Origin: Eledone cirrhosa
Lineage: Eukaryota
DNA length: 64,000 bases
NCBI GenBank assembly: GCA_964016885.1
Contig: OZ024740.1
Span: 43,648,001 to 43,712,000, forward strand
Reading direction: 5' to 3'
Position numbers and translations under genes: made by a program
Notes under the pieces: model-generated
Databases searched by the model: none
Seen by the model: only the letters and a program-made list of their open reading frames with translations
Told to the model about the DNA's origin: nothing
Part shown: one piece after another, positions 9,717-64,000 of the stretch
Position numbering within the stretch: position 1 is the stretch's first letter
Layout: the number at the start of each line of letters is the position of its first letter

Positions 9717-10303
9717 TATATGTGTATAAATATTATATATATAGTTATTTGTTTATTTATACACATATAATATAATCGAATTTCTGTCAAGATGCAAAAT
9801 AATTTAGCATGATCTCATTCTTTTTTTTCTTTATAAAAAAATAAATCTTTATATTTAATATCAACTGTGTTATTCTCTTTGATCTTCGCTGAAATTCGTT
9901 TGATCAGCCTTTGAAAACCGTTTGTTTAAAATTCAGTTGAAAAACGAAACAAAAAAACAAAACACTTTTAATATTCTTCTTTTATCACTGACTGCGAAAT
10001 ATTTTAGTTCTTACACTTATATAATAATAATAATAATAATAATGATTTCATTTATTGGCCACAAGGGCCGACATATAGGGGACAACACAATAGACAGGGA
10101 CAGTGGGGGTTTACATAGAGATCGAGTAAGTATAAATAACAAAAAAACAAAAACAAAATAACAATAAAAATACAACAATGAAAGTTCCCCCAATAAGAGG
10201 GATCACCACCCAGGGTTGACTCAAGCACCCCACCAGTCCTGAGCCACCCGACGCTCCTAGGGCACCCGGGAAGGGCACCCCTCTCCTTCTCGAATTCACC
10301 AGC

Positions 10304-13300
10304 CTACAGGCGCATGATCAGAGTAGGCCCACTCACGCGGGCCATTCTCGCCACATTCACCCACCTTTCAGTAAATGTACTGGGGGGCAGCACTTCTCTC
10401 TCCACCCTCACCTTCCTTTCCAAGTGAAACTTGAAGAAGTTGATGAGGGATTGGCCGAAGAGAAAAGTGTCTGTCTTCAGTCCTTTCAACCTGGTCCACC
10501 ATGCAACCTCTTTCGCTACTGCCACCAGGCAGAGGAAAATTGCCTGCCCTTCCTGACCAAAAGAAGGCGGCGGGTCAATCTTCACTATGGACTCGGACGA
10601 TAGCCGTATCCGTTCTACACGCGACAATAGCTGTTCGACATAACCCCACAAGTCAGCAATGCACGGACACTGGACGAGTGCGTGCAGAACGGTTTCGTCG
10701 CTCTGCGCGCATCTCGGGCAGGTTCGTCTGACAGCACTTCCGTGCCTGTAGAGTTTATCCCGAACCGGCAGCGCCCCCCGGTAGCACTGCCAAGCGAGGG
10801 ATTTCTGGAAGTTATCCATCGTCCCCGGCTCGAAAGTCCTCCGGAACATACTGGTCAGTTCTACTTCGTTGACGCCCAGAGCCTCTCCTAGTACGTCATC
10901 GCACTTGCCCTCCACTAATCCTCTATAGAAATCTTGAGTGGAAGTTCCACTGACCGCATTGCCCACCTTGCAGAGTGCAGTGAGCGCCTGGCAACATTCC
11001 AGATGCCAGTCGCCCAGTCTCGGTCTCTTCTTGACCCAGGACTGCAGCTCAGTCAAAGAGATGAGCTGCGGAAAGGCCCGTCTAACAAACGGCGACCACA
11101 CCTGTTCACCGTTTAGGCAAAATATCTGGAGATGTCGCAGCCTCAGCGCATGTCTGCGCATCATTAGCCACGGCATGCCCAGCCCTCCACGAAGAGGGTG
11201 CTGGCAGCAGATGGACCGCCTCACCAACGGGACCCGTCCCCTCCACAAAAATTTGAAAAGGAGCCGTTCCAAATTGGCGAGGCGTGGACGGGGGCAAGGC
11301 ACGACGGTCAGGCGGTAGTAGATGACGGACGCGATGTACGCGTTCGCCACCTCCGCCCGCCCTTTCAGTGATAGCTTTCTCTCAGCCCATTTCTGGGTGA
11401 GGTTGGCTATCCTGCTCGTCACCTCGTCCCAATTCTTATCCACCTGGAGGTCTGGTCCGAACCAAACCCCGAGCAACTTTACCGGTCCGTCTGTCCAGCG
11501 CCCAACGACGCTGTTGGACGGCATGGACTTGCCTCTCCAGGTGCCGAGCTGCAAGCCCACCGACTTTTCCGGGTTAAGTTTTGCTCCCGTCAACCTTTCA
11601 TATTCCTCCAAATGGGTGCGGATCACCTCGATTTCCGAGGTGTCCGACACCATCACGGTGATGTCGTCCGCATAAGCGGACGCAGCCTTTCTACGTCCCG
11701 GTTCGAGCGGGATGCCCTGCAACAACTCCAGCTTCCGCAGTAGAGGCTCAAGAGTCAATACGTACAGAAGTGAGGAGAGAGGGCACCCTTGACGGACCGA
11801 TCGAGAGATCTGAAACGGTTCCGAGAGGTGGCCATTGACTTTGACCACCGAGCAGATACCGCTGTACATTGCAGCGATCCAGCTTCTGAAGACGGGGCCG
11901 AAGCCAGCCGCCTCGAGGACAGCCTCCAAGTACCGATGGTCGACCCTATCGAATGCTTTCGATTGATCTAAATTGATCAGAGCCCCACCGAAGCCAGGTT
12001 TGCACCCAACCCTCTCTATTATGTATCGCATGAGGTGGAGGTTGTCGTGTATGGACCTGGTCGGGATTGCGCAAGTTTGCGCCTCCCCAACCAAATCTTT
12101 GACGACAAGCGCCAACCTTTTCGCTAACACCTTGGCCAAAATCTTAAACTCTGTGTTGAGCAGGGTTATGGGCCTGAAATTATCTAGTGTGTCCCTCTTG
12201 TTCTCGTCTTTCCTTATCAGCGTCACTACGCCACGGCTCACAGAACTGGGAATGCTCCCGTTCTGCTGCCAGTTGCAGTAGAGCGCTTCGAGGAGATCGG
12301 AGAACAAGTCTGGCATATTTACGTAAAGCTCGTAGGGCAGACCATCCAAACCGGGTGACTTGCGACTCGAGCAGCCGACAAGGGCGTCCTGAATTTCGAC
12401 TGATGTTATCGGCTCTTCGCAGCGCTCAGCGTCGGCCGTCGAGAGGCGTGGCAAGCCGTCGAGGTAGGGACTGAAGTCCGCCGCCGTCTCCGACTCACCC
12501 ATCCTCCCGAACAATCGAACAAAGTGCTGGCGAAAGGCCTCACACATCTGCTTGGAATCGCTCAGTTCGTGTCCATCTCGATCCGTCAAAGACCGAATTG
12601 TGGTTTTATTTCCACGCTGCGTCTCTGCAAAGCGAGCCCATCGGGCAGCTTTGGTTCCCTCGTTCCTCAGAGCACGCGCCTTAGCTCTGACAATGCAACC
12701 TTCGTGTTTCGCATTGAAGAAATGGTCTAGTGCCATTCTCGCCGCTAGCACGTCTGTTGCAATGCCACTACAAATAGCCTCGTCTAACTTAGCTATCAGC
12801 CCCTCCTCCTTTCTATTTTTCTCTATTGCTACTTCTTTGCTAAATCCTATCGAGGTTGCTCTAATCTCTCTTTTGAGTGCCCCCCACCACCTGTTGTTGA
12901 CAACCCCCCCTGTCAACTTTTGCTTAACTAAGTTGTTGACCCGGTCCCTGTAAGCTTTACGTGCCGGAAACGACATGTTTAGCTTCCAGTAGCTAGGTCC
13001 TAACCTACGTGTCTTATCTAGGTCGACCATACAGATCACAAGCTTGTGATCTGAATAGGCAACCGTTTTAAAATGTGGACATCCTACACTATTTCTATCT
13101 CTTTTCCTAATGAAAATCCTATCTATGTACGATCTAGATGACCCTATGCGATTGGTCCAGGTCCATACTGGCGCATTAGGGAAATCTAGTCGGTACCTGT
13201 CAGACAGTTGAAACTGGCTGCTCAGGTACTTGAGGCTTTTGCACCCCCCGCTCCTATCAGATACTCCCACACAATCCCAGCGTGCTTCTAAGATGCCATT

Positions 13301-13723
13301 CCAATCCCCTATTAACAGTAAAGGGCGAGACGTAAGCAGAAAGTTTTCCAGGCGCCTAAAGAAGTCCGGCCGACCGGCCCCAGTAGGGGCGTAGACGGCC
13401 ACCAGTCTAAAGGCACCACCTTCGCTATTGCTCACGTCCAGGACCACCAACTTTCCGTCAGGATCCCGGAAGATTGACCTTACCTCGAGATCCAGACATT
13501 TCCTAAACAGCACAGCCACTCCACCTCCCATTCCCGGCCGACTAACAGATGCAAAGATCTGATAATCGTCGAAAATCGGCGCCAGTGCGCGTGTGTCGGA
13601 AATTCTGGTCTCGCTGATGGCAATTACATCCATTCCTAGTGACCTGAGGTCGTTGAGCAAGTGACCTTGCTTCCAGGGCGACCCCAGGCCACGAACATTT
13701 AAACTTCCTACTCTTATGGCCAT
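10304..13723 (-). CDS. ORF2p: APE endonuclease, reverse transcriptase and CCHC knuckle, 1139 aa, intact
   Basis: APE motifs SLNVRG, ISET, GDWN, IDRIF, SDH; RT motifs KSPGLDG, NFRPITLLN, LDQSKAFDRV, QGCPLS, AYADD; CPRCAQSDETVLHALVQC. Confidence 0.97.
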   Translation of the reverse strand: MAIRVGSLNVRGLGSPWKQGHLLNDLRSLGMDVIAISETRISDTRALAPIFDDYQIFASVSRPGMGGGVAVLFRKCLDLEVRSIFRDPDGKLVVLDVSNSEGGAFRLVAVYAPTGAGRPDFFRRLENFLLTSRPLLLIGDWNGILEARWDCVGVSDRSGGCKSLKYLSSQFQLSDRYRLDFPNAPVWTWTNRIGSSRSYIDRIFIRKRDRNSVGCPHFKTVAYSDHKLVICMVDLDKTRRLGPSYWKLNMSFPARKAYRDRVNNLVKQKLTGGVVNNRWWGALKREIRATSIGFSKEVAIEKNRKEEGLIAKLDEAICSGIATDVLAARMALDHFFNAKHEGCIVRAKARALRNEGTKAARWARFAETQRGNKTTIRSLTDRDGHELSDSKQMCEAFRQHFVRLFGRMGESETAADFSPYLDGLPRLSTADAERCEEPITSVEIQDALVGCSSRKSPGLDGLPYELYVNMPDLFSDLLEALYCNWQQNGSIPSSVSRGVVTLIRKDENKRDTLDNFRPITLLNTEFKILAKVLAKRLALVVKDLVGEAQTCAIPTRSIHDNLHLMRYIIERVGCKPGFGGALINLDQSKAFDRVDHRYLEAVLEAAGFGPVFRSWIAAMYSGICSVVKVNGHLSEPFQISRSVRQGCPLSSLLYVLTLEPLLRKLELLQGIPLEPGRRKAASAYADDITVMVSDTSEIEVIRTHLEEYERLTGAKLNPEKSVGLQLGTWRGKSMPSNSVVGRWTDGPVKLLGVWFGPDLQVDKNWDEVTSRIANLTQKWAERKLSLKGRAEVANAYIASVIYYRLTVVPCPRPRLANLERLLFKFLWRGRVPLVRRSICCQHPLRGGLGMPWLMMRRHALRLRHLQIFCLNGEQVWSPFVRRAFPQLISLTELQSWVKKRPRLGDWHLECCQALTALCKVGNAVSGTSTQDFYRGLVEGKCDDVLGEALGVNEVELTSMFRRTFEPGTMDNFQKSLAWQCYRGALPVRDKLYRHGSAVRRTCPRCAQSDETVLHALVQCPCIADLWGYVEQLLSRVERIRLSSESIVKIDPPPSFGQEGQAIFLCLVAVAKEVAWWTRLKGLKTDTFLFGQSLINFFKFHLERKVRVEREVLPPSTFTERWVNVARMARVSGPTLIMRL

Positions 13724-13752
13724 GCTGGCAGGATGAATGGGAGAGGAAAGGT

Positions 13753-15662
13753 TTACTTACCTTCCGGGGTCTTGTGAAGGTCGGGTGGTTCGACCTCCAT
13801 GGTTTGTGGGGTTTCTTTTGGGAACCCCTTTAATAGTCTTGACGTGGGTTTTACGTTCGGGGTTCCCACATCCCGAGGAAAGCTCTTTCGAATTTCTTTG
13901 TATGAAGCGAGCGACATTCGCATCAGAAGCAAATTATCTGGTACGCGAAATGTGCTCGCTTCAAATGTTTCCCCGTCTTTTTCGATGTTTGTGCTTCGTG
14001 CTACATGGGCCATCAATTCCTTGTTGGCCCTTCTGGCAAGCACGAAGTTTTTAATGTTTTGTTGCTCGGGTTTTATTTGTTCGTGTGATTGTGGTGGTGA
14101 TAGCTTTGTTAGTGTTGTTTCTATTGTGTCTGCGTTTGTTGTGGGTGGGGTGTCTGTAGTTTCTGATGTTTGTGTGTCTATTTGTTCTTGTGTCTGTTTA
14201 GCTTGTTTGCGTTTGGGGGATTTTGGTGGTTGTGTTGGTGATGCTGTGGGGAAAATGTTTGTGTGGGTGATGTGTGTATTTTTTTTTGTGGGGGTGTCTG
14301 TGCTTTGTGGATTTCTTTTTTTTTGTGTTTTGTTTTTTGTATTTTGGGGGACTTTGGTTTTCCCTCATCTTCACTGCTGGAGGATGAGGGGTCTGTGGCT
14401 GTGAGCGTGTTTGTGTCTGAGTGAGTGTTTATGTTCTTGTTCGTGTGTGTATTTTGGGGGGGAGGGGGAATGGGAGAGCTTTCCTCGTTTCCCCCCTGGG
14501 TGTGCAATTTTGGTGGTTCCATTGTTGACGGTGTTGCTGGTGGTCCTTGTCCCGGCGTCGCCAGCAGTGGAATCTTTCGACCCCTTGCGCTTTTCGGCAG
14601 TTGAGGGCAGAAGGCTCGCAAGTGTGTCGTTTCCCCACAAAGGAAACAATGCGGCCTTTTGCCCTCAGTCATTATATGCAACACCCTCCCGTTTTGGAGG
14701 CGGATGTGGTCCGGGATTGCTTTTACGTTTTCGGGTCTGATTTGGAGCAGTATCTCCAGATCAACCCCGGACCAGTCGTCCCTGGCAGTTCTCGTTGCCT
14801 CTACCGGGACTGTATCCGTTCCTTCCACGATTACGCAACCCAGGAGCCACCACATATCAAGTCCTGGTGGAATCCTGGGAATGCGCACACGTGCTATTCG
14901 TTTTCCCATGTGGGAGGGGTACATTATAACCTTGCTGGTTTTGCAAGGGGTCATTGAATGCTTCACAGCGAGGGCTTCAGACTTGAACAGCACCGAAACG
15001 GTGCCGTATTGCCTGCCCCTCTCTATGAAGTCTGTGTCCTCTCTGATGTATTTCAGTGCGGCTTCTATGTCAGCTTGGGCGATTATCGCTGCCCTCTTTG
15101 TCTCTACTGAGATGCATCTGAAATGCACCGTTCTTTTTTCCACTGCCTCAATGGCTTCTGCCGGGACAGTTAAGTTTGCCCAGGTCTGCTCTTGATTTAT
15201 GATTTTCCAGGCCTGGGCCAACTTTTCCTCTCTGTTGGTTAAGTCGATGCTGTAGCATGGTCTCCTTTTAGCCGCTGCCACAGCAGCGAAGGTGTTCTTG
15301 TTGGTGTTGTCACTGTTGTTGTTCTTGTTGGTGTTGCTGCTGCTATTGCTGTTGTTGTTCTCCCCTGTGTCGTGGTTACCCTCTGTGCTGTTGGCCTTGT
15401 TGGTGCTGTTGCTGTCGCTACTATTACTCTCTGTGCTGTTCGTTTTGTTGGTGCTCTCGCTATTACCACCTTCTGCGCTGTTCGGCTTGTTGGTGTTGGT
15501 GTTGTCGCTGTTACCACCTTCCGCGCCGCTCGGCCCGTTGGTGCTGGCACTGTCGCTGCTCACATTCGTGCTGGTGGCGCTCCTCGCCTCACCTCTCCTC
15601 TCAACGCTCAAGTCGCCGTTGCACGACAGCAGACCCGCCTCTAGGGGGCGTGGCTCCGCCAT
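13753..15662 (-). CDS. ORF1p (nucleic-acid binding, CCHC knuckle); 494 aa as read, ~636 aa if the A9 run at 14316-14324 is read -1
   Basis: N/S/T-rich N-terminus, TFAAVAAAK, knuckle CFLCGETTHLRAFC. The -1 frame from the A9 run is open to 13753 and aligns with A2 copies (KSPKRKQ...FVLARRANKELM). Confidence 0.85.
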
Positions 15663-15708
15663 GTTTTTTTGAGAAAAAAATTATTATTTTTTTTCAAAAT
15701 AAAGTTCA

Positions 15709-15736
15709 AATATTTGGGCCAAAAGGCCCAAATATT
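15709..15736 (-). promoter_or_regulatory. Conserved 5'-UTR hairpin (12-bp stem, 4-nt loop)
   Basis: AATATTTGGGCC-N4-GGCCCAAATATT; also at ~21732, 22738, 40531, 46306 and 56721. Confidence 0.75.
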
Positions 15737-15896
15737 ATGAGTTATTCCTTCACAGGATACAAATTAATGTCTTATAATGCTTCAGCGGTACAAAAAATAA
15801 ACAATTCTCTACAATTAATCCTCAAAAATTGCTTACTCACGGAGCTTCAAAAAACGTACATCCACTTTCGTCAATAATAATAATAATAATAATAAT

Positions 15897-16003
15897 TGTT
15901 TCTACTTTAGGCACAAGGCCAGCAAATTACCCAGTGCATTACTGGTACTTTATTTTATCGACCCCGTAAGGATGAAAGGCAAAGTCAACCTCGGCGGGAT
16001 TTG
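15897..16003 (-). mobile_element. 5'-truncated SINE in the (AAT)n spacer
   Basis: Matches the 3' part of 46427-46611; bounded by (AAT)8 and TAAT|G. Confidence 0.92.
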
Positions 16004-16007
16004 TAAT

Positions 16008-19000
16008 GATTTCATTTATTGGCCACAAGGGCCGATATATAGGGGACAATACAAAAGACTGGGACAGTGGGGTTTTACAGAACAATCGAGTAAACAATAT
16101 GAATAACAATAACAAAGTAACGATAAAATTACAACAAGAAAAAATTCCCCAATAGGGGGGATGACCACCCAGGTTTCGCTCAGGTACCCCACCGATACTG
16201 AACGACCCGACGCTTCGAGAGCACCCTGGAAGGGCACCCCTCTCCTCCTCAAATTTACCTACCTACAGCCGCATGACCAGAGTAGGCCCAATCACACGGG
16301 CCATTCTCGCCACATTCACCCACCTTTCAGCAAATGTACTGGGGGGCAGCACTTCTCGCTCCACCCTCATCTTCCTTTCCAAGTGAAACTTGAAATAGTC
16401 GATGGGGGTTGTTGGCCGAAGAGAAAAGTGTCTGTCTTCAGTCCTTTCAACCTCGTCCACCATACAACCTCTTTCGCTACTGCCACCAGACAGAGGAACA
16501 CATTGCTTGCCCTTCCTGACCAAAAGAAGGCGGCGGGTCGATCTTCACTATGGACTCGGCCGATAGCCGGATCCGTTCTACACGCGACGACAGCTGCTCA
16601 ACATAACTCCACAAGTCAGTAATGCACGGACACTGGACGAGTGCGTGCCGAATGTTTTCGTCGCTCTGCGAGCATCTCGGGCAGGTCCGTCTGACAGCAC
16701 TTCCGTGTCTGTAGAGTTTATCTCGAACCGGCAGTGCCCCCCCCCCCCCCCTGTTACACTGCCAAGCGAGTGATTTTTGGAAATTATCCATTGCCCCCCG
16801 GCTCGAAAGTCCTCCGGTACAGACTGGTTAGTTCGGACTTGTTGACTCTCAGAGCCTCTCCGAGTGCGTCGTCGCACTTGCCCACCACTAATCTTCTATA
16901 GAACTCGAGAGTGGAAGTTTCACTGACCGCATTGCCCGCCTGGTAGAGATGCCAGTCACCCAGTCTCGGTCTCTTCTTGACCCAGGACTGCAGCTCAGTC
17001 AAAGAAACGAGCTGCAGAAACGCCCGTCTGACAAACGGCGACCACACCTGTTCACCGTTTAGGCAGAATATCTGGAGATGCCGCAGCCTCAGAGCGTGCC
17101 TGCGCATCATTAGCCACAGCAAGCCCAGCCCTCCACATAGAGGGTGCTGGCAGAAAATGGACCGCCTCACCAGCGGAACCGGACCCCTCCACAAGAATTT
17201 GAAGAGGAGCCGCTCCAAGATGGCGAGGCGCGAACGGGGGCAAGGGACGACGGTCAGACGGTAGTAGGTGACGGACGCGATGTACGCGTTCGCCACCTCC
17301 GCCCGACCTTTCAGTGATAGCTTCATCCCAGCCCATTTCTGGGTGAGGCTGGCTACCCTGCCCGTCACCTCGTCCCAATTCTTATCCACCTGGAGGTCTG
17401 GCCTGAACCAAACCCCGAGCAACTTTACCAGTCCGTCCGTCCAGCACCTAACGACGCTGTTGCACGGCATGGACTTTCCTTTCCAGATGCCGCGTTGCAA
17501 GCCCACTGACTGTTCTGGGTTAAGTTTTGCTCCCGTCAGCCTTTCATATTCCTCCAATAAGTTACTGACCACCTCGATTTTCCGAGGTGTCCGACACCAT
17601 CATGGTGATTTCGTCCGCATAAGCCGACACAGCCTTTCCGCGTCCCGGTTCGAGTGGGATGCTCTGCAACAGCTCCAGCTTCCGTAGTAAAGGCTCGAGA
17701 GTCAATACGTACAGAAAGGAGGAGAGAGGGCACCGTAGCCGGACCGATCGGGAGACCTGAAACGGTTCCGAGAGGTGGCCATTAATTTTGACCATAGAGC
17801 AAGTGCCGCTGTGCATTGCAACGATCCAGCTTCTGAAGACGGGGCCGAAGCCAGCCGCCTTGAGGACAGCCTCCAGGTACCGATGGTCGACCCTATCGAA
17901 TGCTTTCGATTGATCTAAATTGATCAGATCCCCACCGAAGCCAGGTTTACACCCTACCCTCTCTATGATGTATCGCATTAGGTGGAGGTTGTCGTGTATG
18001 GACCTGGTTGGGACTGCGCAAGTTTGCGCCTCCCCAACCAAATCCCTGACGACAAGCGCCAACCACCTCGCTAACACCCTGGCCAAAATCTTAAACTCTG
18101 TGTTGAGCAGAGTTATGGGCCTGAAATTATCTAATGTGTCCCTCTTGTTCTCGTCTTTCCTCATCAGCGTCACTACGCCCCGGCTCACAGAACTGGGAAT
18201 ACTCCCGTTTTGCTGCCAGTTGCAGTAGAGGGCTTCGAGGAGATTGGAGAACAAGTCTGGCATATTTACGTAAAGCTCGTAGGGCAGACCATCCAAACCG
18301 GGTGACTTGCGCCTCATGCAGCCTACAGGGGCATCCTGAATCTCGGCTGAAGTAATTGGCCTTTTGAAGCGCCCAGCGTCAGCCGTCGAGAGTTGCGGCA
18401 AGCCACCGAGGTAGGGACTGAAGTCCGCCACCATCTCTGACCCGCCACTTCCCCCGAACAACCGAGCAAAATGTTGGCGACAGGCCTCACATATCTGCTT
18501 GGAATCGCTCAGCTCGTGTCCGTCTTGCTCCGTCAAAGACCTAATCGTGGTTTTATTACTACGCTGCGCCTCTGCCACGCGGGCCCATCGAACAGCTTTG
18601 GTTCCCTTGTTTCTCAGAGCACGCGCCTTAGCCCTGACTATGCAACCTTCGTGTTTCACATTGAAGAAATTGTCTAATGCCATTCTCGCCACTAGCACGT
18701 CAGTTGCAATGCCACTACCAATAGCCTCGTCTAACTTATCTACCAACTCCCCCTCCTTTCTATTTTTCTCTAACGCTACTTCTTTGCTAAACTCTATCGA
18801 CATTACTCTAATCTCTCTTTTGAGAGCCCCCCACCATCTATTGTTGACGATTCCCCCTGTCAACTTTTTCTTAACTAAATTGTTGACCTGGTCCCTGTAA
18901 GCCTTACGTGCCGGAAATGACATGTTTAGCTTCCAGTAACCAGGTCCTAACCTACGCGTCTCATCTAGGTCGACCATACAGATCACAAACTTGTGATCTG

Positions 19001-21893
19001 AATAGGCGACCGTTTCAAAACGTGGACAGCTTACACTATTTCTGTCTATTTTCCTAATGAATATCCTGTCTATATAAGATCTAGATGACCGTATGCGGTT
19101 AGCCCAGGTCCACACTGGCGCATTAGGGAAATCTAGTCGGTACCTGTCAGACAGTTGGAACTGGCTGATCAAGTTCTTGAGGCTTTTGCACCCCCCGCTC
19201 CTATCGGATACTCCTCCCACACAGTCCCAGAGTGCGTCTAAGATGCCGTTCCAGTCCCCCGCTTACAGTAAAGGGCGAGACGTACACAGAAAGGCTTCCA
19301 GGCGTCTAAAGAAGTCCAGCCGTCCTGCCCCAATTGGAGCATAGACGGCCACCAGTCTAACGGCACCACATTCGTTAATGTTCACGTCCAGGACCACCAA
19401 CTTTCCGTCCGGGTCCCGGAAGATCGACCTTACCTCGAGATCCAGGCCTTTCCTAAACAGCACTGCCACCCCTCCTCCCATTCCAGGCCGGCTAACAGAT
19501 GCAAAAATCTGAAAGTCGTCGAAAATGGGGGCTAGTGCGCGCGTGTCGGAAATCCTGGTCCCGCTGACGGCAATTACATCCATTTCTAGAGACCTGAGGT
19601 CGTTGAGCAGGTGACCCTGCTTCTAGGACGATCCCAGGCCTCGAACATTTAAACATCCTACTCTTAATACGGCCATGTTGGCAGGTTAAAAAGAGAGAGA
19701 GGAAGGTTTACTTACCCTCAAGGCTCTTGTGAAGGTCGGGTTGTTCGACCTCCATAGTTGGTGGTTGTTTCTTTTGGGAACCCCCTTAAAAGTCTTGAAG
19801 TGGGTTTTCCGTTCGAGGTTCCCACGTCCCGAGGAAAGCTGTCTCGTATTTCTTTGAATAAATCGATCGACATTCGCACCAGAACCAAATCTTCCGGCAC
19901 GCGAAATGTGCTCGATTTAAAAATTTCCCCCTCTTTTTGTATATTTTCACTTTGTGCAACGAGGGCCATCAGTTCCTTGTTGGCCCTCCTGACGAGCACG
20001 AAGTTTTGTATGTTTTGTTGGTGTGATTTTATTTGTTTGCGTGGCTGTGGTGGTGATGGTTTTGGTGGTGTTGTTTCGGTTGTGTCTGTGTTTGTTGTGA
20101 GTGCGGTGTCTGTGGTTTCAGATGTTTGTGTGTATATTTGTTCTTGCGTCTGTTTAGGTTGTTTGCGTTTGGGGGATTCTGGTGATGGTGATGGTGGTGT
20201 TGATGTCGGTGTTATTGGAGATATGTTTGCGTGGGTAGTGTCTCCGTTTTTTTTATTGTGGGTGATTTTGCGCTTTGTTGAGTTTTTTTTTTCTTTTTGT
20301 GTTTACTTTTTTGTATTTTGGGGGATTTTGGTTTTCCCTCATCTTCACTACTGGTAGATGAGGGGTCTGTGTATGTAGGTGTGTCTGTATGTATGTTTAT
20401 GGTGTGTGTATTTTGGGGGGAGGGGGAGTTTGACAGCTTTCCTCGTTTTCCCCCTGGGTGGTCAATGTTGGTGATGGTCTTTCTATTGGTGTTGTTGTTG
20501 GTGGTTTTGCCGGTGCTGGTGTTGGTTGTGGTCCTCGCCCCGGCGTCGGCAGCAGTGGAGCCTTTCGACCCCTTGCCTCTTTCAGCAGTTGAGGGCAGAA
20601 GGCTCGCAAATGGTTTTTTTCCCCACAAACAAAACACTGCGGCCTCTTGCCCTCGGTCATAATGTGAATGACCGTCTCATTCTGAAGGCGGATGTGGTCC
20701 GGGATTGTCTTCACATTCTCGGGCCTGATCTGGAGAAGGATCTCCAGGTCAACCCCGGACCAGTCCTCTCTGACCGTTCTGGTCACTTCTATAGGGACGG
20801 TATCCGTCCCCTCCACAATCACACATCCCAGAAGCCACCACATGTCAAGTCCTGGTGGGATTCTGGGAATACGGAGACGGGCTTTTTTTTTCCCATGTGG
20901 GAGGGGTACATTATGACCTTGCTGGTTTTGCAAGGAGTCATAGCGTGTTTTATAGCGAGGGCTTCTGACTTGAAAAACACAGAAATGGTGCCGTACTGTC
21001 TGCCCCTCTTTATGTATTCGGTGTCTTCTCTGATGCACCTCAGCGCGACTTCGACATCTGCTTGTGTGATTAAAGCTGCCCTTTTGGTTTGTGCTGAGAT
21101 GCATCTATACTGCACCGTTCTGCGCTCCACTGCCTCAATAGCTTCTACCGGGACAGTAAAGTTGGCCCAGGTTTGCTCTTGCTTGATGAGCTTCCATGCC
21201 TGGGCCAACATTTCATCTTTGTTTGAGAGGTCCATGTTGAAGCATGGCCTCTTTTTTGCTGCTGCCGCAGCGAAAGTGTCTTCTTGTTTTCGTTGGGGGT
21301 TTTGTTGTCGTTGTCATTGTTCTTGTTGGTGTTGTTGTTATCACTGTCGCTGTTATCATTGTTGTCTTTGTTGCCACCGCTCTTCTCGGTGCAGTTGGTA
21401 TTGTTGCTGTTGGTGTTGTCGCTATTTGTTTTCATGTTAGTGGTGTTGATATTGTTGTTACATTTGTTATTTTTTTTTTTTTGTTATCTGTATTTTCGTT
21501 GTCGCTGTTACTGTCATTTTTTTTCAAAATTAGAGTTCTCATTGGTATCATTGGTGTCTTTGTTTACCTATTTTGTGGTGGTGTTCGTGTTATCAATTTG
21601 TCTTAATTTCACTGTAGCGCTCCTCTCAACTTCTACGTCGTTGTCGCACGACAGCCGACATATCGCTGGGGGGCATGGCTCAGCCATGTTTTTTTATCTT
21701 CGTAAATTTTTTAACATGTAAAAAAAGTTCAAATATTTGGCCAAAAGGCCCAAATATTATACTTTCCCCTTCACAGGGCAAAGTCTAAGGACTTATATAC
21801 CTTACACAACAAGAAATATTTAACAACAAATAATTTTAACAGGCAAATAAAGCGACTTACTGGGAGCGGGCAAAAATGACGTCCGAACAGATC
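16008..21893 (-). mobile_element. Full-length Tx1-clade element, lineage A2 copy a, frameshifted
   Basis: ORF2 fragments within 16263-19676, ORF1 fragments within ~19710-21687, both UTRs, (AAT)n flanks. Confidence 0.95.
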
Positions 21894-38547: not shown

Positions 38548-38576
38548 GCTGGCAGGATGAATGGGAGAGGAAAGGT

Positions 38577-50961: not shown

Positions 50962-50980
50962 TAATAATAATAATAATAAT

Positions 50981-53900: not shown

Positions 53901-56881
53901 CAGTAACCAGGTACTAACCTACGCGTCTTATCTAGGTCGACCATACAGATCACAAACTTGTGATCTGAATAGGCGACCGTTTCAAAACGTGGACAGCTTA
54001 CACTATTTCTGTCTATTTTCCTAATGAATATCCTGTCTATATACGATCTAGATGACCCTATGCGGTTAGCCCAGGGCCACACTGGCGCATTAGGGAAATC
54101 TAGTCGGTTCCTCTCAGACAGTTGGAACTGGCTGATCAGGTTCTTGAGGCTTTTGCACCCCCCGCTCCTATCGGATACTCCCACACAGTCCCAGCGTGCG
54201 TCTAAGATGCCGTTCCAGTCCCCTGCTAACAGTAAAGGGCGAGACGTACCCAGAAAGTCTTCCAGGCGTCTAAAGAGGTCCGACCAACCTGCCCCAGTAG
54301 GAGCATAGGCGGCCACCAGTCTAAAGGCACCACCTTTATTATTATTAAAGGCACATCATTATTGTTCACGTCCAGAACCACCAACTTCCCGTCCGGGTCC
54401 CGGAAGATCAACCTTACCTCGAGGTCCAGGCCTTTCCTAAACAGCACTGCCACCCCTCCTCCCATTCCCGGCCGGCTAACAGATGCAAAGATCTGATAGT
54501 CGTCGAAAATGGGGGCTAGTGCGCGCGTGTCGGAAATCCTGGTCTCGCTGACTGCAATTACATCCATTTCTATAGACCCGAGGTCGTTGAGCAGGTGACC
54601 CTACTTCCAGGACGATCCCCGGCCTCGAACATTTAAACATCCTACTCTTAATACGGCCATGTTGGCAGGTTAAACAGAGAGAGAGGAAGGTTTCCTTACC
54701 TTCTGGGCTCTTGTGAAGGTCGGGTTGTTCGACCTCCATAGTTAGTGGTTGTTTCTTTTGGGAACCCCCTTAAAAGTCTTGAAGTGGGTTTTACGTTCGG
54801 GATTCCCACGTACCAAGGAAAGCTGTCTCGTATTTCTTTGAATATGTCGAGCGACATTCGCACCAGAACCAAATCTTCCGGCACGCGAAATGTGCTCGAT
54901 TTAAAAATTTCCCCCTCTTTTTGTATATTTTCACTTTGTGCAACGAGGGCCATCAGTTCCTTGTTGGCCCTCCTGACGAGCACGAAGTTTTGTATGTTTT
55001 GTTGGTGTGATTTTATTTGTTTGCGTGGCTGTGGTGGTGATGGTTTTGGTGGTGTTGTTTCGGTTGTGTCTGTGTTTGTTGTGAGTGCGGTGTCTGTGGT
55101 TTCAGATGTTTGTGTGTATATTTGTTCTTGCGTCTGTTTCGGTTGTTTGCGCCTGGGGGATTCTGGTGATGGTGATGGTGGTGTTGATGTTGGTGTTATT
55201 GGAGAGATGTTTGCGTAGGTGGTGTCTGCGTTTTTTTATTGTGGGTGATTTTGAGCTTTGTTGATTTTCTTTTTTCTTTTTGTGTTTCCTTTTTTGGATT
55301 TTGGTGGATTTTGGATTTCGCTCATCTTCACTACTGGTAGATGAGGGGTCTGTGTCTGTAAGTGTGTCTGTATGTATGTTTAAGGTTTTATTGGTGTGTG
55401 CATTTTTGGGGGGATGGGCAATTTGACAGCTTTCCTTGATTCTTCCCTGGGTGGTCAATGTTGGTGGTGGTCTTTCTATTGGTGTTGTTGTTGGTGGTTT
55501 TGCCGGTGCTGGTGTTGGTAGTGATCCTCGCCCCGGCGTCGGCTGCAGTGGAGCCTTTCGACCTCTTGCCTCTTTCAGCAGTTGAGGGCAGAAGACTCGC
55601 AAATGGGTTTTTTCCCCACAAACAAAACACTGCGGCCTTTTGCTTTCGGTCATAATGTGAATGACAGTCCCATTCTGAAGTCGGATGTGGTCTGGGATTG
55701 TCTTCACATTCTCGGGCCTGATCTGGAGAAGGATCTCCAGGTCAACCCCGGACCAGTCCTCTCTGGATGTTCTGGTCACTTCTATAGGGACTGTATCCGT
55801 CCCCTCCACAATCACACATCCCAGAAGCCACCACATGTCAAGTCCTGGTGAGATTCTGGGAATGCGGAGACGGGCCGTTCTTTTTCCCATGTGGGAGGGG
55901 TACATTATGACCTTGCTGGTTTTGCAAGGAGTCATGGCGTGTTTCATCGCGAGGGCTTCTGACTTGAACCATATCGAAATGGTGCCGTACTGTCTGCCCT
56001 TCTCTATGTACTGGGTGTCTTCTCTGATGCACCTCAGCGTGACTTCGAAATCTTCTTGTTGGATTAACGCTGCCCTTTTGGTTTATGCTGAGATGCATCT
56101 ATAATGCACCGTTTGGCGCTCCACTGCCTCAATAGCTTCTACCGGGACAGTTAAGTTGGCCCAATTTTGCACTTGCTTGATGAGCATCCATGCTTGGGCC
56201 AACTTTTCATCTTTGTTTGAGAGGTCCATGTTGAAGCATGGCCTCTTTTTTGCTGCTGCCGCAGCGAAAGTGGTCTTGATTTCGTTGGGGGTGTTGTTGA
56301 CATTGTTCTTGTTGGTGTTGTTGTTAGCACTGTCATTTGGTGTTAGCACTGTCATTGTTGTCTTTGCTGCCACCGTTGTTCTCGGTGCAGTTGGTATTGT
56401 TGCTGTTGGTGTTGTCGCTATTTGTTTTCATGTTAGTGGTGTTAATATTGTTGTTGTATTTGTTATTTTTTTTTATCTGTATTTTCGTTGTCGCTGTTAC
56501 TGTCATTTTTTTTCAAATTAGAGTTCTTATTGGTATCATTGGTGTCTTTGTTTACCTTGTTTGTGGTGGTGTTTGTGTTATCAATGTGTGTTAATTTTGC
56601 TGTAGTGCTCCTCTCAACTTCTACGTCGTTGTCGCACGAGAGCCGACATATCGCTGGGGGGCGTGGCTCAGCCATTTTCTTTTTCTTCGTAAATTTTTTA
56701 ACATGTAAAAAAAAAGTTCAAATATTTGGGCCAAAAGGCCCAAATATTATACTTTCCCCTTCACGGGGCAAAGTCTAAGGGCTTATATCCCTCACACAAC
56801 AAGAAATATTTAACAACAAATAATTTAAACAGGCAAATAAAGCGACTTACTGTGAGCGAGCAAAATACGTCCGCTTAGACC
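50981..56881 (-). mobile_element. Full-length Tx1-clade element, lineage A2 copy c, degraded
   Basis: ORF2 fragments within 51238-54660; ORF1 fragments within ~54696-56675; (AAT)n flanks. Confidence 0.95.
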
Positions 56882-56901
56882 AATAATAATAATAATAGAT
56901 A

Positions 56902-57410
56902 GATTTCTTTATTTACCATAAAGGCATAAAAAGAAGGGACAAATACAAAGGGGGGGTTTACATATAATCGAGTAAAAAGGGTGTAACATGAAAATAATCG
57001 AAAATAACCTCAAAAGGGAGGGGACGTGATGGGGGTTGCACACACCCCCGAAAAAGTGTGCAATCCTTTGCCCGGGGAGCACATGGAGAAGGTGCTCCCC
57101 TCTCCTTTACTTCTTTACCTACAGGATGGTATACAGAGAAGGCCCATTTACACGAGCCATTCTCGCCACTATCACCCACCTTTCATAAAACTGCCTGTGG
57201 CCAAGCACCTCTCTCTCCATTCTTATCCTTCTTCCGAAGTGATATCGGAAGAAGTAGACCAGACTATGGCCAGAGAGGAAGTTGCCTGACCTCAGACCTT
57301 TCAATCGTGTCCACCAAACAACCTCTTTCAACATGGCTATTACGCACAGAAAAACCGCCTTTGCTTCCTTTGTGAAGAGGGGAGGCGGTTTGATTGTCAT
57401 CACGGACTCG
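56902..57410 (-). mobile_element. 3' fragment of a divergent Tx1 lineage (E)
   Basis: ORF2 C-terminus PPPLFTKEAKAVFLC..WWTRLKGL..ARMARVNGPSL; 3' UTR ending AATAAAGAAATC. Confidence 0.9.
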
Positions 57411-57873
57411 AAAACGATGATAGAAAACGATCAGCTGAAGGTACTGTGGGATTTTAGGATACAGACGGACAAGAAACTGGAACACAATAGACCTGACCTG
57501 GTGGTTTGGGACAAAGAAAAAAGATCGTGCCTGATTGTGGATGTGACCTGCCCATTCGACACGAGAATGCAAGAGGGGGGAGGGAGAAAATTAACCGATA
57601 CCAGGAATTAAAGTGGGAGGTAAAAAGGATTTGGAACTGCCATGAAATCAAAGTGGTCCCGATTGTCATAGGCGCACTAGGTACTATCTCAAAATGTTTC
57701 CAGGGATGGTGAAAGAAAATTGGCCTCGCCCCGCTTTTTTGAACACTTCAAAAGGAATGCTTGCTGGGAACAGCAAGAACCCTCCGATACGTCCTGAATA
57801 TCTGAGCCTGCAGGTAGTGGCTTCATTTCAACAAACTTTCCAGTTAAATAACATCAATGACTGAGACTCAAAG
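57411..57873 (+). mobile_element. 3' fragment of a second R4/Dong-like family
   Basis: LWDFRIQTDKKLEHNRPDLVV..LIVDV; 3' UTR matches ~59570-59647; (AAT)n tail. Confidence 0.9.
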
Positions 57874-57903
57874 AACAATAATAATAATAAAATTAATAAT
57901 AAT

Positions 57904-59646
57904 AGACCATTATATTGCGAAAAGTGAGAGCAGGAAATTTGTTGAGCAAAAGTATGAAGTCCTGGAAAACAGAGTTAACATCAGCTGGAGAATCCTTGGG
58001 AGGCGTGAAGATCAAGAGAGTTATCTTCCAGGGACATAGTCTTCCCCTCTGTTGTTTGTCCTTGTCCTGTTGCCCCTGACCATTATACTGCAAAAAGTGA
58101 GAGCAGGATACAAGTTGGGAAAAGGAAAGCTTACCATCAACCACCTCCTCTTCATGGACGATCTTAAGCTCTTCGGGAAGAGTGAGAAGGAGTTGGATGT
58201 ACTTGTTGACACTGTCCGTATTTTCAGCAATGATATATGTATGCAATTTGGTATTAGTAAGTGTGGAGTCCTAGTGATGAAGAGGGATAAATTGAGCAGA
58301 AGCAACGGAATCTAGGTACCAACAGGTGAGATGATAAAGGAAATTGACACTGAAGAAGGATATAAATATTTAGGTGTTCTGGAGGCAGATGACATCAAGA
58401 ACAAAAAAATGAAGGAATTGATAACATCTGAGTACATTAGGAGAGTAAGGAGCGTATTAAAACCACATCTAAATAGTAGGAATGTCACGAGTGCAGTGAA
58501 TTCCCGAGCTTTGTCTATTATTAGGTACAGTGTGGGAATTCTGAAATGGAATGTTGATGAACAAAAAGAAATGGATAGGAAGACTAGGAAACTATTGACT
58601 ATCTACAACATGTTCCACAAGAGGAGTGATGTCGATAGACTCTACTTAAGGAGATCTGAAGGTGGAAGAGGTCTTATCAGCATAGAGGACTGTGTTCAGA
58701 TGGAGAAAAACAACCTGCACAATTACGTGAGTGACAGTAGGGAGCCAATGCTCAAAATTGTACTGAAGGAGGGGACAATATACCAGGGGATGTCCAAGCA
58801 GGAAATAACAACAAAGAGGAAGAGCAACCTTCATGAAAAATCCCGTCATAGTACCTTCTTTAAGAAAACTGAATTTAGAGATCCACAGACATGGAACTGG
58901 TTAAAATGAGGAGACCTTAAAAAGGCTACAGAAGGAATGCTAATGGTTGCGCAAGAGCAGACCCTCAGAACGAAGTGGGTGAAACACCATATTTACAAGG
59001 AGGAGGCTAGCCCACTGTGTAGGATCTGTGGAGAGAGAGAGGAGACTGTGGCTCACATTGTATCCGAGTGTAAACACCTAGCCCAGACTCATTATAAAGG
59101 CTGGAGACATGATGTGATGGGCAGGGTGATCCACTGGCACCTATGCAAAGTAAACAATTTACCATATTCTGAGAAGTGGTATGAGCATAAGCCAGAGTGA
59201 GTGATAGAAAACGATCATATTTTAGGATACAGACGGACAAGAAACTGGAACACAATAGACCTGACCTGGTGGTTTTGGACAATGAAAAAAGATCGTGCCT
59301 GATTGTAGATGTGGCCTGCCCATTTGACACGAGAGTGAAAGAAAAGGAGAGGGAGAAAATTAACCGATACCAGGACCTAAAGTGGGAGGTAAAAAGGATT
59401 TGGAACTGCCATAAAGTCAAGGTCGTCCCGATTGTCATAGGCGCGCTAGGTACTATCTCAAAGAGTTTCCAAGGATGTTTAAAGAAGATTAGTCCAGCCC
59501 CGCTTTTTGGAACACTTCAAAAGGCATGCTTGCTGGCAACAGCATGAGCCCCCGATACGTCCTGTATATCTGAGGCTGCAGGTAGTGGCTTGATATTCAT
59601 TTCAACAAACTTTCCAGTTAAATAACATCAATGACTGAGACTCAAA

Positions 59647-59647
<1 letters not shown>
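57904..59647 (+). mobile_element. 5'-truncated copy of the second R4/Dong-like family
   Basis: LFMDDLKLF, YKYLG, GGRGL, CRICGEREETVAHIVSEC, RHD, RPDL; multiple stops; followed by (AAT)13 at 59648-59686. Confidence 0.93.
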
Positions 59648-59686: not shown

Positions 59687-59687
<1 letters not shown>

Positions 59688-62600
59688 TTTTCTTTATTAA
59701 CCACAAGGGTTCACATAAAGTAGACATTAAGGACAGTACAGGATAATACAGGACGGTACAAATGGGCATTTCTGCGTGTAAAAAAACAGAGGTTGAAATA
59801 AAATAACAAAGAAAAATTCCCCAATAGAGGGGAGACTTCCAAGGGACATTTGTGGAGAAAGCCCATTAAAAGACCACAGTGGCCCTGACCACCAGGGCAA
59901 GTGCCCTCTCCCAGTTGTCCACCTTTAATTTACAGACACATACTCAGAGAAGGCCCATTCATTCGGGCCATACTTGCTTCTCTCACCCATCTTTCAACAA
60001 AATGCTGGGAAGAGAGCACTTCCCTCTCTACCCTGATTTTCCTTTTCAAATTAAATTTGAAAAAGTTAATCAGGGCATCACCGAAGAGGTAAGTGCTCGT
60101 CTTCAGCCCTTTCAAACGTGTCCACCATACTATCTCTTTCGCCATGGCCACCAGACAGATAAAAACTGCCTGCCCTTCCAGGCTAAATGAAGGGGGCGGG
60201 GAAATCCTCACGATGGACTCAGCTGATAGCTGGATCCGACCTACGCGTGACAGCAGGTGTTCGACATAAACCCACAAGTCAGCAATGCTCGGACACTGGA
60301 CGAGTGCGTGCAGGACGGTTTCGTCGCCCTGCGCGCATCACGGACATGCCCGGCTGACGGCACCTCCATGCCTGTAGAGTTTATCCCGAACTAGCAAAGC
60401 TCCTCGGTAGCACTGCCAGGCCAGGGATTTCTGGAAGTTGTCCATAGGCCCCGGCCCGAAAGTCCTTCCGAAGAGATTGGCTAGTTGATTTTCGTCGACG
60501 CCTAGAGTTTCTCCAAGTACGTCGTCGCTCTTCCCCTCCACTAATCCCCTATAGAACGCCAAGGTGGAGTTTCCACCGATCACATTGCCCGATTGGTCGA
60601 GGGCTGTGAGCGGCTGAAGACATTCCAGTCTCCAAGCGCTCCCTCTCGGTCTTCGCTTGACCCAGGACTGCAGCTCCGTCAATGAGACGAGCTGGGGAAA
60701 AACGTGTCTTGCAAACGGCGACCACACCTGATCACCGTCGAGGAAGAGGTGGAGATGTCGTAGCCTGAGCGCGTGTCTGCGCATCATCAGCCACGGCATT
60801 CCCAGCCCTCCAGGTAGCTTGTGTTGACAGCAGATGGACCGCCTGACCATCGGAGCGCGTCCCTTCCACAAGAAGCGAAAGAGCAAACGCTCCAGCGCAG
60901 TCAGGCGGGGCTTAGGACAAGGTACGACGGTCAGGCGGTAGTAGATGACGGATGCGATGTACGCATTCGCCACCTCCGCTCGACCTTTCAGGGATAGCTT
61001 CCTCTCGGCCCATTTCTGGGTGAGAGAAGCCACCCTGCTCGTCACCTCGTCCCAGTTTTTGTCCGTCTGGAGGTCTGGACCGAACCAGACCCCTAGCAAT
61101 GTAACCGGTCCGTCCGTCCAGCGCCCGACGACGCTGTTGGACGGCATGGACCTGCCTCTCCAGGTGCCGAGCTGCAGGCCCACTGACTTTTCCTGGTTGA
61201 TCATTGCTCGTCACCGCTTCGTATTCTCTTAGTGTAGTGCCGATCGCCTCGATGTGTTTGGCGTTCGACACCACTACGGTGACATCATCGGCATATGCTG
61301 ACACGGATCTTCCGCATCCTAGTTTGCGCGGGACCCCCCTCAACGTCTCCAGTTTGTGCAGTAATGTCTCGAGAGTCAATACGTACAATAGGGACGAGAG
61401 GGGACATCCTTGGCGGACCGAGCGCATGATGTTGAACGGTTCCGAAAGGTGACCGTTCACTCTCACTACAGAGCAGATGTCGCTGTGCATGGCAGCGATC
61501 CAGCCTCTGAAGACGGGCCCAAAGCCAGCCGCCCTCAGGACTGCCGCTAGGTAACGATGGTCGACCCTATCGAAGGCTTTCGACTGATCTAAATTGATCA
61601 AAGACCCACCCGTGCAAGGTTCCCTAGCTACCCTCTCTACGATGTATCGCATGAGGTGGAGGTTGTCGTGGATGGATCTGTCGAGAATGGCGCATGTCTG
61701 TGCCTCTCCCACCAGACCACCAACGACAAGCGCCAACCTCTTTGCTAGCACCTTGGCCAAAATCTTGAACTCTGTGTTTAACAGTGTTATGGGCCTAAAA
61801 TTATCTATGTTATCCCCCTTGTTCGGATCCTTTCTCAGCAGCGCCACCGCTCCTCGGCTCACAGAGCTGGGAATTCTCCCGTTCTGTTGCCAGTTGCAGT
61901 AGACGTCCGCCAAGAGGCCTCCGAACAAGTTTGGCATTTGTACATAAAGTTCATAGGGCAGACCATCCAAACAAGGCGATTTACCCCTTGTGCAACTAGT
62001 CATTGCATCCCGTACTTCAGCGGTTGTTATCGGCTTTTCGCAACACTCCGCCTCAGTGGGCGAAAGCCGCGGCAGTCCGTCGAGATAGACACTAAAGTCC
62101 ATCCCTCGATCCGGTCCGCCACTGCCCCCGAACAGTTGAGCGAAGTGTCGCTGAAAAGCTTCACACATTTGCCCGGGATCGAGTAGCATGCGCCCGTCGT
62201 GGTCCACCAAAGACCGGATCGTGGCTTTGTTGCCACGACGCGCTTCCGCCACTCGGGCCCATTGAACGGCTTTCGTCCCCTCGTGTCTGAGAGCACGCAC
62301 CCTAGCTCTGACAACGCAGCCTTCGTGCTTTGCATTGAAGAATTGGTCAAGGGCCAATTTCGCCGCAAGTACGTCGGTCGCGATGCCTTTGCTAAGCACC
62401 TCATCTAATTTTCTAACTAATTCTCCCTCTGCTCTATTTTTCTCTATTGCTAAAGTCTTACTAAACCTAATGGACTCTATTCTAATTGCTCTTTTCAGAG
62501 CAAACCACCACTTGTTGTTGACGATGGCCCCCGTCAACGCCCGCTTAACTAGTTCGCTAATCCGGTCTCTGTAGGCCTTGCGCGCTGGTAAGGACGCGTT

Positions 62601-64000
62601 TAGCTTCCAGTAGCCGGGTCCTCGTCTATGAAGCCTATCTAAGTCAAGCACACAGATCACGAATTTGTGGTCCGTGTAGCTGGCTATCTTGAATTGTGGA
62701 CAGCCTATGCTAGACCTATCTATTTCCCTACAAAATACTCTATCTAGATATGATCTGGATGACCATATGCGATTTGTCCAAGTCCACATTGGTACATTCG
62801 GGAAATCCATTTGGTACCTGTCAGACAGTTCAAAACGTCTGAGCAGGTTGGTGAGACTCTTGCACCCTCCTTCCCTATCCACTAATCCCACACAATATCA
62901 GCGTGCATCTAAGATCCCGTTCCAGTCGCCCACTAACACTAAAGAGCGGGACGTTCCAAGAAAGGTCTCCAGACGCCGGAAGAAATCAGGCCGCCCTGCT
63001 CCTGTCGGGGCATAGACGGCCACTAACCTGAAAGCTTGCCCGTCTCCGCTGGTCACGTCCAGCACCACCAACTTACCTTCTGGGTCCAGGAAGATGGCCC
63101 GTATGGCAAGATCCAAACCTCTCCGAAAAAGCACAGCAACTCCTCCCCCCGATCCCGGACGGCTGGGAGATGCGTACACATCGTAGCCGCCGAAGATCGG
63201 TGCGAAAGCCTGTGCTTCGGAGATTCTGGTCTCGCTGATGGCCACTACATCTATGTTTAGTGACCTGAGGTCGTTGAGCAGGTGGCCCTGCTTCCATGAC
63301 GACCCCAAGCCACGCGCATTTATGCTGCCTATTCTGAGTGAGGTCATGTTGAAAAGTAGTGGAAAAGATGGGAAAGACCACTTACCTTACTTCTCGTAGG
63401 GGAAGGACGGTTTTTCCATCCTTTTCACTGCTTGTGGCCTCCTCAGGAAGGATGTCCTTATAAATCCTCCTGGAGAGTGCTTGTCGGAAGTCTCCGATGT
63501 CTTAGGGGAATTTTTGTTTTAGTGTCATGTACGTTTTTTGTGTGATGCGAGTGATTTGTATGTGTGGAGGTGGTGTGAATTTTGGGGTTGTTGTGTAGTT
63601 TCTTTCTGTGATGCTGGTGTTGTGTTGGATGTAGTGTAATAATTGCTTGTTGTTCAAATTTAATGCTGTGTAGTGTGTATCGTTTTGGTTGTTTTGTTTT
63701 GTTTGCGTTTGTTGTGGGTTTGTTTCTGTTTCGCATTTTGGTGACTTTTGTGGTGTAGGTGATGGTGGTGTTGGAGTTAATGATGGTGATGGTGTTGGTG
63801 TTTGGGTTGATGGGGTTGGTGATGCTGGTGTGGATGGTGGCATATCTGTCCTAACTTTTTTGTTTCTTAGTTTATTTGTTTCCCTCTGTATTTTGTTTTT
63901 GGAGGGGGAAGGAAGAGAATTTTTTCTTTTTTGGTTTCTTTTTTTTTTCCGGATATCGTTTCCCAGTCCTCGTCGTCACAATCTGTCTCCAGTTGTGATA
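59687..64000 (-). mobile_element. Tx1-clade element, lineage B copy b (continues beyond window); ORF2 at 59930-63347 with two stops and one frameshift
   Basis: APE/RT/CCHC motifs in ORFs 62898-63347, 60912-62891, 60338-61204 and 59930-60277; ORF1 C-terminal part from ~63383. Confidence 0.95.

Follow-up and report, generated by a model that had tools for sequence, protein, structure and literature searches.

We analysed a stretch of 64,000 nucleotides of the Eledone cirrhosa genome (GenBank assembly GCA_964016885.1, contig OZ024740.1, positions 43,648,001 to 43,712,000 of the forward strand), hereafter the window, in which positions 10021-64000 are taken up by a chain of transposable elements. 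Based on self-comparison and printouts of the junctions, this chain contains ten long interspersed nuclear element (LINE) units of the L1 group, Tx1-like, all on the minus strand and arranged head to tail over 54 kb. The LINE units make up 46,527 bp (86%) of the span, three plus-strand pieces of R4/Dong-like sequence 6,485 bp (12%) and a short interspersed nuclear element (SINE) 680 bp, and the array is therefore mixed rather than purely Tx1. The original prediction, made from the letters alone, had described an array of more than 50 kb formed by one (ATT)n-specific family. Its head-to-tail LINE array stands, as do its ten minus-strand units (all mapped), its roughly six lineages (recovered by pairwise identity) and the separation of most units by (AAT)n alone, whereas the purity does not, the plus-strand R4/Dong-like pieces and the SINE having gone unnoticed. 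We consider it slightly better than an even bet (roughly 55%) that the chain is a mixed hotspot grown by single insertions, in which a short nick motif and the pairing of an (AUU)n RNA would make ATT runs a preferred and self-renewing site. The elements of the chain, preceded by a separate LINE copy at the start of the window, are as follows.

1-2608, plus strand: separate LINE copy of lineage C, its 5' end outside the window, with (ATT)16 at 2561-2608 and then unique DNA; 92.5% identical to unit 9 and 88.9% to unit 3
10023-10043, minus strand: (ATT)7 at the 3' end of the array, then unique flank
10044-15872, minus strand: unit 1, lineage A, full length, ORF1 and ORF2 intact
15897-16003, minus strand: 5'-truncated SINE, located where unit 2 ends in C|ATT, then (ATT)8 at 15873-15896
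16007-21893, minus strand: unit 2, lineage B, full length, open reading frames (ORFs) broken
21912-22898, minus strand: chimeric unit, a 384-bp lineage-B 5' end (22515-22898) fused to a 603-bp 3' end of another lineage, no ATT at the fusion
22938-29115, minus strand: unit 3, lineage C, broken, carrying a tandem pair of SINEs (26852-27235)
29134-34856, minus strand: unit 4, lineage D, 5'-truncated within ORF1, broken
34875-40694, minus strand: unit 5, the twin of unit 1 in lineage A, with a single stop, at codon 713 of ORF2
40722-46669, minus strand: unit 6, lineage B, its 5' untranslated region holding a full SINE (46423-46611)
46688-50962, plus strand: full-length R4/Dong-like element, (AAT)6 on each side, open frame 48145-50853
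50981-56881, minus strand: unit 7, lineage B, full length, ORFs broken
56897-57409, minus strand: unit 8, 3' fragment of the sixth lineage, its truncated 5' end abutting a Dong-like fragment without ATT
57410-57876, plus strand: 5'-truncated R4/Dong-like fragment of a second family, with an (AAT)n end
57905-59647, plus strand: 5'-truncated R4/Dong-like copy of the second family, 90% identical to the fragment at 57410-57876, ending in (AAT)13 shared with the 3' end of unit 9
59687-64000, minus strand: unit 9, lineage C, extending past the end of the window

By pairwise identity, lineage A comprises units 1 and 5 (99.6% identical), lineage B units 2, 6 and 7 and the 5' part of the chimeric unit (87-93%), lineage C units 3 and 9 and the plus-strand copy (89-93%) and lineage D unit 4, while two more lineages, represented by 3' fragments only, bring the number to six. 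Identity between lineages is 68-85%, and the values for all units span 68-99.6%. Only (AAT)n lies between the neighbours in six of the nine unit pairs; the other three enclose a SINE fragment, a full-length plus-strand element and two plus-strand fragments, and the linkers, 15-39 bp long, have the size of target duplications. The twin units 1 and 5 have different neighbours on both sides, and their near-identity stops at the unit boundaries. Together with the mosaic of identities along the chain, this argues that it was likely built by repeated insertion and not by duplication. A tandem duplication of a block from units 1-2 to units 5-6 was ruled out, since near-identity ends at the boundaries of units 1 and 5.

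Could the elements have piled up passively where genes are absent and recombination is low, or could the chain be an artefact of assembly? In keeping with such an origin, the window holds no recognisable host gene and no read-derived contig spans the stretch. Yet all ten units point the same way and terminate at ATT, they lie 7-30% apart except for one pair (24 differences, different neighbours), and the window is free of any N. We regard a pile-up or an artefact as very improbable.

The 5' junctions of full-length units read ATT|G in seven of seven cases (for unit 3 there is no second copy to confirm that its 5' end is full length), and the 3' junctions read C|ATT in eight of ten units, the remaining two having a G and a T. 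AATAAA stands ahead of all ten 3' ends in the array and poly(A) follows none of them. At least four ATT units form the tail in nine of the ten; that of unit 2 is one ATT, followed by the SINE. Over the whole window, ATT follows 11 of 11 LINE 3' ends, with at least four units after ten of them. Both kinds of junction, the (ATT)n tails in place of poly(A) and the (ATT)16 that ends the plus-strand copy at 1-2560 had been read in the same way in the original prediction. Indeed, 13 of the 14 ATT or AAT runs of at least four units in the window are located at element ends, and the junction pattern is therefore not due to chance. Reads carry its 3' side as well: (AAT)n past a LINE 3' end was seen in 7060 reads of run X23 (mapping on 9900-16200 in 4 of 24 listed runs, with repeats masked). 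The heptamer CATTATT occurs 16 times in the window against 9.3 expected, a count that 5 of 100 shuffles reach and that is uninformative.

On the 5' side, eight of the ten visible LINE ends come after an ATT run. The two ends lacking it, at 22514/22515 and 57409/57410, are both truncated and both abut other elements; they look like deletions because the host element is absent on the far side. A nested insertion was ruled out for the chimeric unit, as the host element is not resumed beyond it. Its junction at 22514/22515 shows neither microhomology nor ATT and may stem from a deletion or a template switch.

No LINE is nested in the body of another, despite 38 internal CATTA sites in these bodies. 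When the ten tails and the 38 internal sites are taken as equal, the location of eight of eight 5' ends at tails gives p ~4e-6, and when every tail unit is counted as a site against 113 internal ATTA, p is 5e-4 (all p values for tail preference exclude the two truncated 5' ends without ATT). Based on these ends and on the empty bodies, ATT runs are preferred within this locus. The available part of PMC4494074 calls a Tx1 family microsatellite-specific if the repeat lies on the flanks of more than 20% of its copies; here, it lies beside 11 of 11 3' ends and eight of ten visible 5' ends in the window, all copies of one locus. The 5' runs are not independent evidence, because each is also the tail of the upstream element, and one locus cannot separate tail from target.

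Which kind of element built the chain? Unit 1 carries both proteins intact:

10304-13723, minus strand: ORF2, 1139 aa, with APE endonuclease, reverse transcriptase (YADD at 684) and C-terminal CCHC (Pfam: APE, RT, zf-RVT)
14178-15662, minus strand: ORF1, 494 aa, with low-complexity ends and a central domain with a CCHC knuckle (Atlas CCHC clusters, 0.92)

In a structure-database comparison, the best solved match of ORF2 was LINE-1 ORF2p (E 2e-56 over residues 4-853), with R2 at 3e-22, and the catalytic residues expected from the LINE-1 alignment are present; a search with the endonuclease alone gave spurious repeat proteins as its top matches. ORF1 itself has no Pfam match and is 28% identical to the ORF1 of a sister lineage discussed below (E 1e-15). 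By these sequence features, namely two ORFs, the combination of APE, reverse transcriptase and C-terminal CCHC, and a reverse transcriptase nearer to LINE-1 than to R2-type proteins, the family belongs to the L1 group of retrotransposons that lack long terminal repeats (non-LTR). Membership in the Tx1 clade is likely: features that go with this clade, a CCHC knuckle in ORF1 and a short ORF2 (1139 aa), are present, and a Keno-like proxy (L008) grouped with the window family at 90/97 in a 58-row tree and was unresolved in a 29-row tree pruned of long branches and redundancy, both trees being built without named Tx1 references.

Lineage A is young. Unit 5 differs from unit 1 by 15 substitutions and 9 indel bases, a divergence of ~0.36 million years if the octopus rate quoted in the available part of PMC13282606 applies. 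Contigs of run X16 that show 0-2 differences from unit 1 reach a depth of 1856-2153, while the remaining contigs listed for this run stay at 5.6-15. This suggests that unit 1 has numerous near-identical copies, depth not being equal to copy number. At 12519 and 13221, unit 1 has private alleles where unit 5 and most of the read depth agree on the other base, and the intact unit 1 therefore need not be active. Of the potentially active ORF2 that had been proposed, we thus recover the intact frame with its APE, RT and zf-RVT domains and leave out the activity itself, for which, given the private alleles, intactness is no proof.

The SINE is ~190 bp long and is present in six copies in the window, four of them within the array; the two outside it are:

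9126-9183, minus strand: 5'-truncated SINE in non-repeat DNA, its 17-18-bp duplication beginning C|ATTATT
5484-5698, plus strand: older SINE copy (75%) with a single ATT after it and no clear duplication of more than 3 bp

Three SINE insertions are bounded by target duplications that begin with ATTA and have a C before them, the only target duplications free of ambiguity. These are the 17-18-bp duplication at 9126, an 18-bp duplication starting ATTATT around the copy at 46423 in unit 6, also in non-repeat DNA, and a 9-bp duplication that both separates and flanks the tandem pair at 26852-27235, recognised by eye from a comparison with unit 9, where the site is empty (near 63655). A fourth insertion lies at the C|ATT end of unit 2, and the fifth site, that of the older copy, has only ATT, after a T; CATT itself occurs in the flank at 0.004-0.005 per base. 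The unit 6 site (46624-46630) reads ATTATT where paralogous units have TTTATT, as if a point change had made the target. The C|ATT insertion signature is common to SINE and LINE. When the last 30 nt of the SINE are compared with the last 40 nt of the LINE, the match to all four LINE units falls among the best-scoring 0.5-1.8% of windows, but ranks only at 28% and 71% for the Dong-like ends. The sister elements and the SINE share, close to the 3' end, a GGCCT(T/C)GTGCC-like motif that the window LINEs match loosely. The tRNA and Rfam scans of the window gave no match, the SINE head included, and a comparison of the SINE with plasmids gave none either.

A third element type shares the linkers. 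The plus-strand element at 46688-50962 contains a single ORF with reverse transcriptase, CCHC and restriction-like endonuclease motifs, whose only solved-structure matches are R2-type proteins (residues 126-837), with no match to L1. An (AAT)6 lies exactly on each side of it; all three R4/Dong-like pieces end in AAT repeat, and the full-length copy is inserted within it. The full-length element is probably inactive, because upstream of 48145 (47172-48144) its frame is interrupted by a stop at 48142 and changes near 47750. Dong elements target TAA repeats according to the available part of PMC3812793, and we call the pieces R4/Dong-like for this reason; the label is inferred from the target and not from a named Dong sequence, and of 120 homologues listed, two have an informative source name, neither of them a Dong label.

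How could three element types come to share one kind of site? We start from what is observed, the anatomy of the chain, its junctions, the target duplications and the mosaic identities, to which the proposed model adds a nick site, an RNA tail, a mode of priming, an order of events and a partnership with the SINE, all of which we infer. The LINE endonuclease is predicted to nick a short motif, AAT|G on the bottom strand and C|ATT on the top strand. The LINE RNA would end in (AUU)n and pair with the freed AAT end of the bottom strand. The 3' end of the element (…GAAATC followed by ATT repeats) would then recreate the best version of the nick site, and the target duplication would leave ATT on both sides of the new copy, so that the next copy would land at the tail and not in the body. 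The SINE, with its similar 3' end, likely borrows the LINE ORF2, and owing to its short tail may also use single C|ATTA sites; if so, the core target would be the short C|ATTA motif. Elements of the R4/Dong-like type, equipped with a restriction-like nuclease, would enter the same ATT runs on the opposite strand. Both halves of this scheme have parallels: tandems formed by double insertion are described as a general phenomenon (available part of PMC5932611), and in RTE elements the start of the duplication matches the 3' repeat (available part of PMC13295347).

Several observations weigh against this model of a self-renewing hotspot. The tail preference is weaker when ATTATT is taken as the motif (p 0.006, with 9 internal ATTATT), and the window holds no solo LINE, full-length or truncated, with both flanks. 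The 3' similarity between SINE and LINE is modest, never giving the top-scoring window in the four units, and the choice of sites within the array differs between LINE and SINE only at p 0.055. None of seven 3' ends folds into a hairpin better than its shuffles do (all z above -2). The truncated 5' ends at 22514/22515 and 57409/57410 lack ATT. Moreover, at the three non-repeat sites the SINE has no ATT tail beyond the duplication. Since the SINE left no such tail there, the (ATT)n of the LINE could be its target and not a templated tail.

This last point favours strict microsatellite specificity, in which the endonuclease recognises long (AAT)n in the way that Kibi recognises (TC)n and Koshi (TTC)n, the ATT after 3' ends belongs to the target, and the SINE moved by other means or as a looser passenger. 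Strict specificity would account for the ATT after every LINE 3' end, mostly in runs, for the lack of nested LINEs and for the R4/Dong-like elements in the same linkers, whose namesakes have TAA repeats as targets (PMC3812793, as above). It would also fit, as would our model, the endonuclease loop aligned to the L1 specificity hairpin: lineages A-D of the window conserve it, and the sister lineage has a different one, longer by two residues. However, each 5' run doubles as an upstream tail, the three SINE duplications in non-repeat DNA begin C|ATTA, and the two truncated ends speak against long-repeat recognition too, if they are true insertion ends. Grafts of this loop alter nicking by the L1 endonuclease, but nicking specificity alone does not suffice to explain L1 integration sites (available part of PMC1950540). 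We therefore see strict specificity as an unlikely though serious competitor. For the microsatellite-targeted, radiated family of the original prediction, this means that the radiation, the ATT tails and a strong local preference for ATT runs hold, whereas an (ATT)n specificity of the endonuclease itself is only conjectural, given 5' runs that double as tails and SINE sites that read C|ATTA.

Is ATT needed to form such arrays at all? Among 135 homologues, one is 78% identical and 41 are 37-45% identical, the rest being at ~31% or less among the 120 listed. A genome scan located 47 loci, 43 of them in one assembled bacterial bin (G001), which likely are animal host DNA because their flanks are AT-rich and microsatellite-rich. 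In both trees, the elements at 41% identity come out as the sister group of the window family (100/100); they form head-to-tail arrays with a period of 6.4-6.8 kb. Their junctions contain (ATT)3 in 0 of 46 cases; instead, an array-specific linker of ~15-19 bp follows AATAAA and is kept at three of three array 3' ends that precede unique DNA, and exactly or partially at three 5' starts. The arrays are homogeneous, with ORF2 identities of 99.85-100% within contigs (19 pairs) and 93-100% between them (152 pairs; 19 of 43 loci).

These arrays without ATT also count against our model, and because the sister lineage makes them, another array-forming property may be at work. Arraying could be an older trait of the whole lineage, arising by double insertion at a used site or by read-through copying, followed by unequal exchange and deletion, with ATT as the tail of one branch and without a role in targeting. 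Besides the non-repeat linkers of the sister arrays, the chimeric unit and the join between unit 8 and the Dong-like fragment would fit, as both resemble deletions within an array. Against this origin stand the homogeneity of the sister arrays, compared with a mosaic of six lineages and no duplicated block here, and the SINE duplications, which begin with ATT in pre-existing DNA. We judge it quite improbable. More tentatively, and at well below even odds, both kinds of array may mark an undescribed invertebrate L1-group lineage characterised by self-chaining, with tail-less homogeneous arrays in one branch, and in the branch studied here a change from poly(A) to an ATT tail equal to the target, the docking sites being co-opted by a SINE and by a restriction-like element on the opposite strand.

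Several further observations were made among the relatives. The G001 bin (L081-L121, L124, L125, L128-L136) holds 89 LINE ORF2 matches, most of them intact, in satellite-like tail-less arrays, and is likely animal contamination. At L122:3036-3199 and 9961-10137, AATAAA and a short poly(A) terminate a distant Tx1-like element immediately ahead of the 3' part of a U1 small nuclear RNA (snRNA) gene, with an intact U1 upstream, and the element may represent a U1-targeting family; L006 starts close to a 5' fragment resembling U1 (judged by eye, without an Rfam match). At L008:108-134 and 5853-5977, a U2 snRNA gene is split by the Keno-like element into a 5' and a 3' part. In viral contigs, no relative was found by protein, nor by two DNA motifs.

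Within the window, the flank at 2609-10020 has ~35% GC and is rich in (TA)n, (CT)n and (ACAT)n, with no LINE in any of these repeats. It contains two inverted-repeat pairs, 3620-3959/4510-4834 (76% over 354 bp) and 7793-7924/8214-8345 (92% over 132 bp), possibly non-autonomous DNA transposons. The ORF1 region of unit 4 carries a perfect (TTTTTTC)10 run at 33397-33465 and a long GTT-rich low-complexity tract at 34561-34836.

In human LINE-1 and Alu, a short nick motif is combined with pairing between tail and primer, and a SINE travels as passenger. LINE-1 provides the closest solved ORF2, and the logic proposed here is alike; it differs in the tail (poly(A) against ATT repeats), in the CCHC knuckle of the window ORF1 and in the strong clustering at tails.

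Other known systems share single features with the chain, and the descriptions that follow come from the available parts of the papers cited. Tx1 elements target TC, TTC and TTCC/TTTC repeats, U2, U5, 5S, satellites and transposons (PMC4494074). Kibi, Koshi and the crocodilian (TTCC)n/(TTTC)n families (PMC4494074, PMC3812793) resemble the window LINEs in being APE-type, Tx1-like and microsatellite-associated, but by description, which is the level of our comparison, their targets are pyrimidine repeats, ATT not being among those named there. Dong, of the R4 clade, shares the TAA/ATT repeat (PMC3812793), and Dong-like pieces sit in three of the array linkers; it differs from the window LINEs in nuclease type and strand, and these pieces are passengers in the array. 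Drosophila R1 arrays and double-insertion tandems consist, as here, of head-to-tail LINEs parted by duplicated target (PMC5932611), but of one family with later unequal exchange, compared with a single chain here that combines six lineages with two further element types. Keno and Utopia, an APE and a restriction-like element, converge on U2 snRNA (PMC4640811) much as the two types do here, where the target repeat is supplied by the elements themselves and the two types lie on opposite strands. The repeat annotation of Octopus vulgaris lists 80 L1-Tx1 families and, as recently active, 13 L1-Tx1 and 5 Dong-R4 families (PMC13282606), the same two element types, with no target sites, tails or arrays described in that part of the paper; the window elements may already be in its library. 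The accessible text of PMC9115989, PMC3747384, PMC4758252 and PMC4824008 contains nothing on this family. A literature search found no ATT-targeting Tx1; the figure and supplement lists of PMC4494074, Repbase and Dfam lie outside that search, so that absence from print is not established.

In summary, microsatellite-targeting Tx1 elements and tandems built by insertion were already known, and the known kinds of system are unchanged by our finding; it is the ATT target that is likely new. If our model is true, ATT would be added to the few microsatellites that serve APE-type LINEs as targets, and the locus would follow Keno and Utopia as the second example of a site on which two types of nuclease converge. 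The intact young copy, the SINE duplications and the sister lineage without ATT together allow a test of whether specificity comes from the endonuclease or from the pairing of tail and primer, a question that is open in the L1 literature, and should the reading of a self-chaining lineage be true, the intact ORF2 would permit a direct test of the co-evolution of tail and target. We anticipate that such self-renewing sites offer a possible mechanism for transposon hotspots in repeat-rich invertebrate genomes.

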